A stretch of DNA of 64,000 nt from Hyphomicrobiales bacterium (GTDB lineage Bacteria; Pseudomonadota; Alphaproteobacteria; Rhizobiales; Devosiaceae). Each line of letters starts with the position of its first letter. Position 1 is the first letter of the stretch. The DNA is taken from positions 17,626 to 81,625 of the forward strand of contig SEEL01000014.1 of the NCBI GenBank assembly GCA_004144345.1, given 5' to 3'. Shown piece by piece: positions 2,301-5,433 of the stretch. The notes under the pieces are model-generated. The model searched no databases, was not told the DNA's origin, and saw only the letters and a list, made by a program, of their open reading frames with translations. The position numbers and the translations under genes are program-made.

Positions 2301-3329
2301 CTAGCGGGCCAGCCAAGCCCTGAATGAGGCGTCTAGGATTTCGGCGCGCTGATTATGCGACCAGTCATCGTTTACGCTCCGAGACGCTTGTCGATAAGCC
2401 GCGTAGTCTGTGTCCTCGCGGTTCAACTCTTTGTCCAAGTTCAGTTCCGACTGAAACTCCTCTAGAAACTGACGGAAAATTCCAAGGCGCTTTGCCGATT
2501 GGTCGCGGCAAACCCAATAGTAGACTGGTATCTGACCCTGCGACGAAAGAAGCGGATCTCGATTGCCAAAAACGCTGCGCATCTTGTCCAGTCCGGAAAG
2601 CGTCTTCTGGAATGCCACTTTAATCTGGCCCTCGTCGGCTTCGCGCACCATGTCGTCTAGCGAGACCTTTTTGGTATCTACAGGCCCTTCTGAAAGCTCA
2701 AATATTAGCAGCTTGGCTGCCGCGTTAAGGTTCTGACCGCGCTTCGTTTGATAGCGAACGCACTCTGCGAAGAATTCGTGTTCGGCAATCCGGCGAAGCA
2801 TCTTTGGCACAGGACCAATCATCGCATTTCGCTTCTCAGCGCCAGTTAGATTCGCGCCCTTGTTCAGCCGCACAAAGAGTTCGTTGATCTTCTCTAACTC
2901 GTCGGTAACGACATGCATGATCGGCATCGGATACTCTTCAATGACAGCCGCGACAGCCTCGTGCGATCTCTGCAGGTCCTTATAGTACAATCCCCTAAGA
3001 GCCAGATTTTCATTCTTTTGATACTGGAATTTTCTGCTCAGAGGATAATCGTTACTCAAGAATCCAAATATCGCTTCAATTCTCTGCTTTCCGTCAATAA
3101 CAGCAAACTGTAGGTTATCTTCGTTTATGACGCTCTTTATCGTCGTGAAATCCGCCAAGTATAGTTTTGGGATATCGTACTCGTTAAGTATTGAGTCGAT
3201 GAGGTACTGCTTATCCTCAAGCGACCAAATACCGCCAGAGCGCTGATACTCAGGCTCCATGTCGATACGGTTTCTTATGCTAAACCAGTATCTTGCGGAT
3301 TTTAGGTTTCTAGCCTGTACCTCAAACAT
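2301..3329 (-). CDS. DUF262 (GmrS/ParB-like) domain protein
   Basis: Motifs PEYQR..IW...KQYLIDSIL...IP, AVIDGKQRIEAI, ELFVRLNKG..LT.AEKRNA; start reassigned to ATG 3329, 1 nt after the FRG stop. Confidence 0.85.
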   Translation of the reverse strand: MFEVQARNLKSARYWFSIRNRIDMEPEYQRSGGIWSLEDKQYLIDSILNEYDIPKLYLADFTTIKSVINEDNLQFAVIDGKQRIEAIFGFLSNDYPLSRKFQYQKNENLALRGLYYKDLQRSHEAVAAVIEEYPMPIMHVVTDELEKINELFVRLNKGANLTGAEKRNAMIGPVPKMLRRIAEHEFFAECVRYQTKRGQNLNAAAKLLIFELSEGPVDTKKVSLDDMVREADEGQIKVAFQKTLSGLDKMRSVFGNRDPLLSSQGQIPVYYWVCRDQSAKRLGIFRQFLEEFQSELNLDKELNREDTDYAAYRQASRSVNDDWSHNQRAEILDASFRAWLAR

Positions 3330-3330
3330 G

Positions 3331-4128
3331 CTAATATCCGTACTTTCCGCGTATCTCGGTCGCAAGGCCATCCAAGTCGGGGAATACGCTTGAGTATGTT
3401 ACTCCATAGTGCTGCAAGTCGGCATACACCCCAAGGGCCGCGGTTGGTTTAATCTCAATCTTTGTCAGCGGCACATCAGTATTCCATGCTTTATGACCTT
3501 CACAAAATTGCTCCAGAGATTTCTTCTGCGGGCCAAATATAACGAACTTTCCGCGCTGGGCGTTTATCCTAGGGTTGTTGATGACACCCTCGATCCCGAG
3601 TGGCTCGGACCGACGACTCCCCGTGGCGAGAGGATGATACTGGGCAACAGTGGTGTCGTCTGTTGGGTAAACCAGTTGAGGCCCACTTATGTCGTGCAGC
3701 ATTCCCTCGTTCCATCGAGCGGGGTCGAGAACCCAGAGGACTGGCGGCTTAGCCTTGGGTCCGTTCTTGAAACTACTGAGAGCGAAAAAAAGCCCAACAA
3801 GGGGACTGGCGGTCCAGTCCAGCAGCCTCGTAGGAAGTCGATAGTGCTGCATCAGGAACAACTGATCCCACAAATCCACCCTAACCAAGCTATCGTACAT
3901 GGGAGAGCGGAAGTGAAAGTCCTTGTACAGCCGCGCCTCCTTGGCGGAGATGTCTGCTATGGGCGCATCTAGGCGATGCAGTCCTGGTGCGAGCACGTAG
4001 GAATTGCTGCTGTGTCCCCGGTACCACAGCTCTCTATCAGGCCTAAGCGCTCTAACCGCCTCGATTGAGTCGATCACTGATCGGAATGAGTCTGCAGTAA
4101 GGGTTTTAATATTGCTGTTCTTGGACAA
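3331..4128 (-). CDS. FRG-domain protein
   Basis: WYRGH near N-terminus, MQHYRLPTRLLDWTASPLVGLFFAL, NPRINAQRGKF, C-terminal GVTYSSVFPDLDGLA. Confidence 0.9.
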   Translation of the reverse strand: MSKNSNIKTLTADSFRSVIDSIEAVRALRPDRELWYRGHSSNSYVLAPGLHRLDAPIADISAKEARLYKDFHFRSPMYDSLVRVDLWDQLFLMQHYRLPTRLLDWTASPLVGLFFALSSFKNGPKAKPPVLWVLDPARWNEGMLHDISGPQLVYPTDDTTVAQYHPLATGSRRSEPLGIEGVINNPRINAQRGKFVIFGPQKKSLEQFCEGHKAWNTDVPLTKIEIKPTAALGVYADLQHYGVTYSSVFPDLDGLATEIRGKYGY

Positions 4129-4141
4129 TTCGGCCCCGAAA

Positions 4142-4188
4142 CATCTAGAATTCCAGACATTACTATCGTCCCAAGGGGATTCTAGATG
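4142..4188. repeat. Inverted repeat just upstream of the FRG start
   Basis: CATCTAGAAT (4142-4151) and ATTCTAGATG (4179-4188) are exact reverse complements; extendable to 13 bp with one G-U pair. Confidence 0.8.
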
Positions 4189-4436
4189 GAAGAGACCGGT
4201 TCCACTGGATTTTGGTGATTGTCGCGGCTCCTACACGAAGAGCAATCTGCCTGATCCCAACTCCACTATCGTCCGCGCCCCTTATCGAGTCACGGAATCC
4301 GCAGAACGTGAACTGCTCGCCCGTCGAGGCTGAAATCCCGCTACACTTCACAACAAGATTCCGGCAGAACCCACTGCCCCCATTCAGCAATCCAAGAAAT
4401 ATCCGAAAACTTATCCACGTCCCCCTGGACCGCCCG

Positions 4437-4442
4437 CATAAT
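4437..4442 (+). promoter_or_regulatory. Putative -10 element (CATAAT) for the structured RNA
   Basis: Ends 7 nt before G4449, the first base of the first stem; no convincing -35. Confidence 0.4.
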
Positions 4443-4448
4443 GCCCTC

Positions 4449-4850
4449 GCTGCCGCCGTATAGCCCGGCGTACCGACGAAGTGCGGGTGGCAGCGGCGGG
4501 GGCGGTGTGGTCGCACATCGTATGGTCCAGCCTTGGGGTACCCGTTGGTGAGCGACTGGGCGGTGTCAGAGACCGCGCCAGACCCGCAATAAGCCCTCGC
4601 GCGCCCCACTGGTTCCTCACATCCCGTCAGCGGCATCCCCCAGCGGGGGACCGGTCGAGCCGAGGCTCGGTTGGTCACAGCGCAGGGGTAAGCGCGGAGC
4701 GTCTCGAACGCTTCGCCAAAGCATCGGAGGCGCTCCGCGCTTCCGTCCGGGGACGCTTGTCCCCGGCAAGGGAACAACCGGGGTCGCAAGACTGCCGGAA
4801 ACCTCCGCACGCCCCTACGCAGGCGAGCTACATCGGATCACCCGCAGCGC
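4449..4850 (+). ncRNA. Candidate large structured non-coding RNA, family not recognised; 3' end approximate
   Basis: Stems 4449-4457/4486-4494, 4499-4504/4602-4607, 4505-4518, 4560-4576, 4650-4675, 4692-4705/4727-4740, 4747-4766, 4778-4798 (GCAA loop), 4680-4688/4812-4820; G-U pairs consistently on the + strand; no protein-like ORF. Confidence 0.6.
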
Positions 4851-4863
4851 ACAAACAATTCCC

Positions 4864-4889
4864 GCAACCCCTGCCCGGCCCTCGCGTTT
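4864..4889 (+). promoter_or_regulatory. Putative EcfG/sigmaT (general stress response) promoter
   Basis: GCAAC-N15-GCGTTT, one mismatch to the GGAAC-N15/16-gcgTT consensus, directly upstream of a general stress protein gene. Confidence 0.55.
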
Positions 4890-4923
4890 GCCAAGCACAC
4901 TTCAAACTATAGGAGCGGCAACA

Positions 4924-5433
4924 ATGCCCCATGAAAAGCAGCAGGAAACCGACATGAGCCCGGCCGAGATTGCCGACCGCGTCTGGGAGCTGGCCAAGAG
5001 AATCGACTTCTGCATGTTCGACACCTGGGACGGCAGCAAGCAGCAATCGCGCCCGCTCAGCTCGCGCGTCTTCCGCGACGAGCACGCCATCTATTTCCTC
5101 ACCTCCGCCACGAGCCACAAGCTCGAGCAGATCGAACAATATCCGCGGGTGAATCTCGCTTATGCCGATACCGGCTCGATGAAGTTCGTCTCCATCTCGG
5201 GCGACGCGACCGCCAGCAATGACCGCGCCAAGATCAAGGAATTGTGGTCGCCCTTCGACAAGGCCTGGTGGGACGATGAGAACGATCCCGACATCCGCCT
5301 GATCACCGTGCGGCCCGATAGTGCCGAGCTGTGGGACTCGCCCAACAAGGCCATCGCGTTTTCGGCCATGCTGGTCTCGGCCGTCACCGGCGCCAAGCCC
5401 AAATTTGGCGACAACGCCACGGTGCAGCTCTAG
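4924..5433 (+). CDS. General stress protein 26 / pyridoxamine 5'-phosphate oxidase-like FMN-binding protein
   Basis: RBS AGGAG; SRPLS, IYFLT, PRVNLAY, IKELWSPFDKAWW...DPDIRLITV..DSAELWD. Confidence 0.85.
   Translation: MPHEKQQETDMSPAEIADRVWELAKRIDFCMFDTWDGSKQQSRPLSSRVFRDEHAIYFLTSATSHKLEQIEQYPRVNLAYADTGSMKFVSISGDATASNDRAKIKELWSPFDKAWWDDENDPDIRLITVRPDSAELWDSPNKAIAFSAMLVSAVTGAKPKFGDNATVQL

Follow-up and report, generated by a model that had tools for sequence, protein, structure and literature searches.

We begin by asking what kind of element occupies the region around positions 4449 to 4850 of the window (the whole 64,000-nucleotide stretch of DNA analysed here), and whether it is the single non-coding RNA gene that an earlier note, made from the letters of this stretch, took it for. 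That note proposed a highly structured element on the + strand that belongs to no recognised class. On both counts the proposal stands. The + strand of 4449-4850 folds to -206 kcal/mol, a z-score of -3.5 against dinucleotide shuffles, whereas the - strand reaches only -1.8. Rfam 15 at gathering scores gives no match anywhere in the window, a search of 4100-5000 at E values up to 10 returns just chance hits of the miRNA type, and nine homologous loci from other genomes yield nothing on the element. The families left unmatched include OLE, ROOL, GOLLD, raiA, HEARO, RNase P, tmRNA, SRP, the group II intron and the riboswitches.

The reading as a single gene, with the limits first given to it, does not hold. 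When the window's own assembly (Devosia, a 4.1 Mb draft in 132 contigs, 99.99% complete; G000 in what follows) is searched with 4440-4860, 40 matching pieces are found, and the genome holds about 20 copies at 75-97% identity. Mapping all of these matches back onto the window places the limits of the repeat at about 4329/4338 and 4815/4818, which gives a unit of about 475 bp with a fold-bearing part of about 370 nt. Positions 4338-4815 are one copy of an intergenic repeat family of the Devosiaceae, multicopy and modular. Compared with the boundaries 4449-4850, the repeat takes in the promoter region and about 110 nt upstream, and it excludes 4816-4850, which is unique flank.

The mapped matches divide the + strand of the unit into module A1 (4338-4407), module B (4408-4505), module C (4506-4635), a rare insert D (4636-4689) and module E (4690-4815). 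By profile searches, module B, with the promoter, is present 16 times in the genome, C 19 times and E, the 3' domain, about 20 times, the last count leaving out palindromic self-hits of the hairpin P3. The left arm comes in two alternatives: A1 (4338..4407, + strand, CGCTACAC...AATCCAAGAAATATCCG) is found at 11 genome places, and other copies bear A2. Some copies are truncated (C25, C19). Very many modules are located at contig ends, and the element thus breaks the assembly. On one contig (C125:20805-21509 of G000) a pair of copies stands head to head with a single A2 arm common to both; the promoter module is missing from the second copy, and the two face different genes, cysG and a sugar-phosphate isomerase-like gene.

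The earlier note had named dispersed, near-identical copies with terminal repeats as the mark of a MITE or REP. Many similar copies do exist, but conserved terminal inverted repeats are absent: neither these nor target duplications are visible by eye at the ends of the aligned copies, and the sole inverted pair lying anywhere near the termini, 4359-4367/4792-4800, overlaps the part of A1 that differs in other copies.

Insert D (4636-4689) bears a hairpin and occurs in very few copies (that of the window, C27 and partly C13); judged from the aligned copies, it is not part of the family core. With it go two structures once counted in the fold, the 11-bp hairpin at 4650-4675, which falls inside the insert, and the helix 4680-4688/4812-4820, which pairs the copy-specific insert with unique flank. 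The insert is a separate small hairpin-bearing piece, and a related version lies downstream of the copy on contig C124, between the element and the DUF2948 gene. In the window copy there is also an internal duplication: the -10 region and start at 4433-4450 (CCCGCATAATGCCCTCGC) recur at 83% identity within the central domain at 4583-4600 (CCCGCAATAAGCCCTCGC), a feature confined to the subfamily of this copy.

Other REP-like palindromes precede many copies. They belong to two or three other short palindromic families, exemplified by CCTTCTCCC..GGGAGAAGG..GGATGAGGGTGG and by GGGGAGGGGGGACCGGCGAAGCCGGTGGGTGGGGC, that lie just upstream of most copies and are seen on G000 contigs C15, C23, C25, C62, C77, C92, C106, C108 and C110; because they adjoin most copies, the intergenic regions are best described as mosaics of several repeat kinds. 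In D. nanyangense, several copies are followed by one to three tandem units, each about 37 nt long (GTGCTGNGCTTGACGAAGCACGAYARCAAGGGACC) and bearing CTTGAC (L034; also L041/L097).

The next question is how widely the family is distributed. When public genomes are scanned for exact matches to a pattern from the P1b segment, the hits fall almost exclusively in Devosia records: a D. nanyangense MAG has about 22 of them and Devosia sp. ant_bin.602 has one. Of 64 Devosia species genomes searched with R1, a covariance model built on the 3' domain, 18 carry the element, and the copy number among them ranges from 1 to about 25. The remaining 46 genomes, some of them complete, give no match with R1, and the element is therefore dispensable. 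Among 150 genomes sampled from the order, the only convincing matches come from a second genus of the Devosiaceae (G080, whose genome is complete); its four copies, more diverged, can be seen by eye to have the same architecture. Outside the Devosiaceae in this sample, R1 and a second covariance model (R2) give weak, unconvincing matches under strict filters; one of the matches tried as a family member (G127) looked spurious and was rejected. No record in the plasmid collection matches the element.

We turn our attention to the module that precedes the fold. At its start is a conserved box, AACTTATCCACG (4408..4419, + strand), whose core ACTTATC is present in all copies, in all Devosia species that carry the element and in the genus G080. 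A spacer that measures 19-20 nt in all copies, in these species and in G080, and that is variable in sequence, separates it from the -10-like hexamer CATAAT (4437..4442, + strand). As had been pointed out before, this hexamer lies 7 nt before the first stem, P1; we find a TA-rich hexamer at the same place in every copy and species (TATGAT, TATTAT, TAAATT and CTATGA elsewhere), 6-9 nt before P1. It is the fixed position of the hexamer, despite its varying sequence and spacer, together with the conserved ACTTATC box, that leads us to infer a promoter, with a putative transcription start near 4449. A sigma-70 consensus scan of 4250-5000 calls no promoter, the -35 match being missing. We considered the ACTTATC box as a DnaA box, as an ECF -35 and as a sigma-32 -35, but its spacing and conservation fit none of the three. 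At the other end, the 3' tail (4799..4815, + strand, AAACCTCCGCAC..., family consensus YCUYCG...) is conserved, and the repeat ends with it. It is not followed by a U-tract, and a scan for intrinsic terminators over 4250-5000 finds none.

Between these ends, the parts follow in the order ACTTATC box, TA-rich hexamer, P1, P1b, P2, P2a, P3, P4 and P5, an anatomy common to the copies, to the Devosia species and to the second genus G080 (from alignments, and for G080 by eye). All helices are given on the + strand. The 5' stem GCTGCCGCC/GGTGGCAGC of the earlier note is P1 (4449-4457/4486-4494), which the comparison of homologues supports; it encloses P1b (4469-4473/4481-4485), whose loop is CGACGAA, with the family consensus YGACGAR. 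The central domain had been thought to be closed by GGGGCG/CGCCCC (4499/4602). The homologues favour a different helix in this role, P2 (4495-4501/4622-4628, 3' strand TCCCGTC), on the basis of compensatory changes. Inside it stand P2a (4503-4509/4514-4520), with an invariant GUCG loop, and the variable central domain (4521..4621), which contains the conserved pieces GGUCCAGCCUUNGGG and ACUGGUUCC and whose length is about 85 nt in D. nanyangense and about 100 nt in the window, reaching about 200 nt or more in G080.

The 3' domain is made of three hairpins, each of which had been recognised in the window and is supported by homologues, with one correction. P3 (4691-4705/4727-4741), the long stem placed earlier at 4692/4727, is 15-17 bp across the family and carries a nearly invariant U-G wobble at 4702/4730. 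P4 (4747-4752/4761-4766) is the hairpin at 4747-4766. For the hairpin at 4778-4798, the stem, P5 (4778-4785/4790-4798), is supported, but the GCAA loop to which the earlier note drew attention varies among homologues. It is elsewhere that the loops are constant. YGACGAR and GUCG never change, which suggests that they may make a loop-loop contact or bind a factor; GUCG and the YGAC of the P1b loop are mutually complementary.

To what extent is this fold maintained by selection on pairing? The earlier note had pointed to covariation among homologues as a check, and the covariation is strong. A MAFFT alignment of the 3' domain (n=30) has 94.8% of cells paired, compared with 40-51% when the partners are slid, and 11 pairs altered on both sides. 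With 80 distinct sequences aligned to the model, 96.2% of cells are paired and both-side changes occur in 16 of 30 pairs (198 cells), a result matched by none of 500 shuffles; these counts at n=80 lean upward, for the copies are related and their alignment was fitted to the model. Among 12 5' domains drawn from 8 species, compensatory change is seen at 14 of 23 pairs; the MAFFT alignment of G080 with Devosia 5' domains was misaligned and is left out. For P2, a G-to-A change in the 5' strand is mirrored by C-to-U in the 3' strand between two subfamilies of G000, and other species have, by eye, different complementary strands such as GGCAGG/CCUGCC and GGUGG/CCACC. The duplex energies of cognate and non-cognate P2 strands (-13.9 and -11.8 kcal/mol, sd 4.2) do not discriminate in such GC-rich RNA, so P2 rests on the compensatory changes read from the alignments.

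The direction of the fold can be read from the wobble pairs. The note had counted G-U pairs on the + strand in one copy; across the family, G-U/U-G cells outnumber A-C/C-A cells by 203 to 10, and this excess marks the + strand as the folding strand. Single-stranded DNA also tolerates G-T pairs, so the strand bias alone does not prove that the molecule is RNA. The substitutions taken together show a predicted fold that is under selection on the + strand and conserved there through compensatory change.

We now consider the genes around the copies. These are unrelated housekeeping genes and include icd, putA, fadD, cysG, adenine deaminase, an MFS transporter, a GGDEF protein, a 5'-nucleotidase and DUF2948, among others; in front of icd, putA, fadD, cysG and others, modules E and B show 80-97% identity. 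The downstream gene is co-oriented for about 16 of 20 copies in the window genome, 17 of 21 in D. nanyangense and 8 of 14 in G070, or 41 of 55 in total, as counted from crude GC3 ORF calls. The window copy is located between a low-GC gene pair and a stress gene. The pair, on the - strand between uvrB and the element, encodes an FRG-domain protein (3331-4128) and a GmrSD_N/DUF262 protein (2301-3371), and as a unit (2301-4128) it resembles a small defence island. Since other copies flank unrelated housekeeping genes, we regard the adjacency as incidental.

On the other side, and outside the element, is a gene for a Pyrid_ox_like protein of the general-stress type (4924..5433, + strand). The earlier note had given this gene a promoter of its own, and the EcfG-like sequence GCAAC-N16-CGTT (4864..4889, + strand) is indeed kept upstream of the orthologues in four relatives (G016, G017, G073 and G076), in all of which the element is missing at this site. 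The window copy thus appears to be a lineage-specific gain, or to reflect loss elsewhere, located upstream of the stress gene's own promoter. Beyond the EcfG-like promoter, the upstream regions of the relatives are too diverged for an empty-site comparison to place the insertion point.

Other sites are shared between species. The putA and fadD sites are both occupied in G000 and G067, the DUF2948 site in G000, D. nanyangense and G023, the 5'-nucleotidase site in G000, G003 and D. nanyangense, and the site at an MBL-fold exonuclease in G000, G024 and G046; further shared sites exist. At DUF2948 and fadD, the flanks from the element to the start codon align between species. The sequences of the elements themselves follow a different pattern. 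Copies within a genome have identities of 0.80-0.85, whereas 17 of 19 pairs at orthologous sites have 0.59-0.71 (the exceptions are 0.81 and 0.90), and orthologous-site copies are no closer than non-orthologous copies of the same two genomes. Orthologous sites combined with greater likeness among genome-mates imply that the copies evolve in concert, through gene conversion, or are replaced time and again where they stand, and since the upstream arms are homogenised too, the homogenising acts on DNA. These comparisons show a family whose copies are gained and lost between species and kept alike within one genome.

One would then like to know what machinery might act on the copies. In a Pfam search of the window genome, the TnpB-type domain PF07282, the IS110 DEDD transposase PF01548, the Y1 transposase PF01797 and the reverse transcriptase PF00078 are all absent; controls matched, for PF01797 in six control genomes. 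No small four-cysteine ORF occurs within 600 nt downstream of the element in 77 distinct downstream regions, and genome-wide we find no credible candidate for a recurrent small Cys/Arg-rich protein.

What, then, is the family? We think it reasonably probable that an RNA is made from the element's own promoter and that the fold matters at the RNA level, which would make this a self-promoted structured-RNA repeat family. Each copy would then form its own small transcription unit, with RNA polymerase initiating near 4449, about 7 nt beyond the -10-like hexamer. The resulting RNA, of at least 370 nt, would fold into a 5' domain (P1, P1b, P2, P2a and the variable insert) and a 3' domain (P3-P5). 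Because an intrinsic terminator is absent, we propose that the transcript is processed, stopped by Rho or continued into the next gene; such run-on would explain why about three quarters of the copies point into a co-oriented gene. Duplication and homogenisation of the copies would take place at the DNA level and extend to the upstream arms, with gene conversion as the most likely route. As for its role, we would guess that the RNA binds a factor as a non-coding RNA or serves as a stabilising leader, and that it does not sense a metabolite. A bolder proposal, which we put forward only tentatively, is that the family could be the Devosiaceae member of an undescribed class of ornate, self-promoted RNAs of 300-480 nt, present in 1-25 copies per genome, gene-converted, with a contact between YGACGAR and GUCG and with a cellular function such as binding or titration of a host factor.

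The upstream arms count against an RNA reading, for they are repeated and would be non-transcribed, as expected of a DNA-level repeat. An alternative that we consider fairly unlikely is a repeat of the REP, BIME, RIME or MITE kind, acting purely as DNA, whose hairpins would work in the single- or double-stranded form, for example in transposase or recombinase recognition or in binding nucleoid proteins, and whose RNA would be incidental. A multicopy, modular family that breaks assemblies, with truncated and head-to-head copies and with REP-like palindromes adjoining many of them, is what this alternative would lead one to expect; so is the lack of both a -35 consensus and a terminator, and so is species-specific sequence at conserved sites, a pattern known from the enterobacterial REP/BIME. 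It is less easily reconciled with the absence of Y1/RAYT, TnpB, IS110 and RT genes from an assembly that is 99.99% complete, or with ends where neither conserved terminal inverted repeats nor a target duplication is seen. Also against it are a long-range helix, P2, that spans more than 120 nt, loops that are invariant across genera, a -10-like hexamer held in position though its sequence varies, and a strand asymmetry as strong as 203 to 10.

If the RNA reading is kept, the element could instead be a cis-regulatory leader, like a riboswitch or attenuator, with each copy controlling the gene that follows it, which we judge quite unlikely. About 75% of the copies do point into a gene whose start lies 40-200 nt further on, different species have several sites in common, and the stretch from element to gene has no terminator. 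The genes so placed, however, are unrelated (icd, putA, fadD, cysG, adenine deaminase, the MFS transporter, the GGDEF protein and the stress protein), about a quarter of the copies face the 3' end of a convergent gene, and promoters belonging to the genes themselves intervene, EcfG-like here and of the TTGACG type before fadD. The distance to the start codon varies, no expression platform is found, and homogenisation within a genome is unlike the behaviour of riboswitch paralogues. We regard as largely refuted, and very improbable, a guide or scaffold RNA of a mobile system, be it an IscB/TnpB omega RNA (HEARO), an IS110 bridge RNA, a retron or the remnant of a group II intron: the copies are multiple and promoter-bearing, their size would suit, and unique flank comes after a conserved scaffold, but HEARO, the IS605-orfB motifs and the group II introns go unmatched in Rfam at E up to 10, the four Pfam domains and the four-cysteine ORF are missing as described, and the neighbours are housekeeping genes. 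Protein coding can be dismissed. The open frames at 4481-4912 (+) and 4163-4810 (-) run for 143 and 215 codons, and their Arg/Pro/Gly-rich translations are off-frame products typical of GC-rich DNA; substitutions in the stems are compensatory, and no frame is kept because copies differ by indels of 1-2 nt and by whole modules. Guide RNA and coding together take up a very small share of the probability. The self-promoted structured RNA, copied as DNA, remains the reading that we prefer.

Large RNAs with many covarying helices are, to our knowledge, seldom found in bacteria, and the classes studied so far have almost all brought new biochemistry to light. The present element is an unusual mix: it has the size of a ribozyme or a large riboswitch, a promoter-like module of its own and up to about 25 copies per genome. 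It is also unusual that the same intergenic sites are occupied across species and yet the copies are alike within a genome. If the RNA is the active product, alphaproteobacteria of soil and groundwater would have in it a new and abundant RNA. If the family is a repeat only, it would clearly exemplify a promoter and leader in portable form, with the potential to rewire how housekeeping genes are expressed; in practice it would also account for fragmented Devosia assemblies and for sRNA genes wrongly predicted as novel.

Finally, we compare the element with known systems. The nearest kinds, namely structured intergenic repeats, putative mobile promoters and orphan large non-coding RNAs, work alike, and the likeness that we see is one of manner. 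Several groups resemble the element in part and can be set aside as its class. REPs are palindromic, measure 20-40 nt and depend on a Y1 (RAYT) transposase for their movement. REP/BIME and REPIN-RAYT systems are like the element in having species-specific sequence at partly conserved intergenic sites and homogeneity within a genome, but a unit of about 475 bp is more than ten times longer and PF01797 is absent from G000, so we reject membership. We reject a MITE for want of conserved terminal inverted repeats and target-site duplications. The HEARO/IscB and TnpB omega RNAs are likewise large structured RNAs tied to mobile DNA, sometimes as stand-alone copies, but the Devosia element has no Rfam match and its genome no TnpB-type or Y1 gene; membership among the TnpB/IscB omega RNAs, the IS110 bridge RNAs or the retron msr-msd is rejected with the absence of the partner genes PF07282, PF01548 and PF00078. 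Unrelated downstream genes, the missing terminator, the varying distance to the start and the intervening promoters speak against membership among riboswitches and attenuators.

The element does have the properties of a structured RNA, with compensatory helices beyond controls and strand-specific G-U pairs. In this respect it is like OLE, ROOL, GOLLD and the raiA motif: it is 300-480 nt long and has many helices, strong covariation, some conserved loops and no assigned function. It differs from them in being unmatched by their models, in being repeat-like with up to about 25 copies per genome, and in being confined, among the genomes searched, to the Devosiaceae. Looking from the side of the repeats, the pneumococcal BOX, the enterobacterial ERIC/IRU, the Correia elements of Neisseria and the rhizobial RIME and Sm-repeats are, like the element, dispersed, multicopy, intergenic, partly modular and foldable, and some repeats of the BOX/ERIC/Correia/RIME type bear promoters and are co-transcribed with neighbouring genes. 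The Devosia element exceeds these in size by a factor of 3-4 (about 475 bp, of which about 370 nt are the RNA part) and has a long-range helix, loops that are invariant across genera and no conserved terminal inverted repeats. The resemblance, drawn from descriptions rather than from sequence, would be one of function and not of membership.

A last group is defined by what it does in the genome. Putative mobile promoters (PMPs) were reportedly described by Matus-Garcia, Nijveen and van Passel in 2012. Dozens of such repeats, without a known function, are on record for rhizobial genomes (PMC2573895), and Correia, ERIC and REPIN elements have been cited as promoter-bearing mobile elements (PMC3575422). 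PMPs are sequences with at least 80% identity over at least 50 nt before unrelated genes of one genome, some with RNA motifs; their mechanism of spread is unknown, and they form an operational class rather than a family (PMC3575422). The Devosia element shows just such identity, at least 80% over at least 50 nt upstream of non-paralogous genes. Compared with the PMPs, the Devosia unit also holds a large covarying fold, occupies orthologous sites and is homogenised within each genome.
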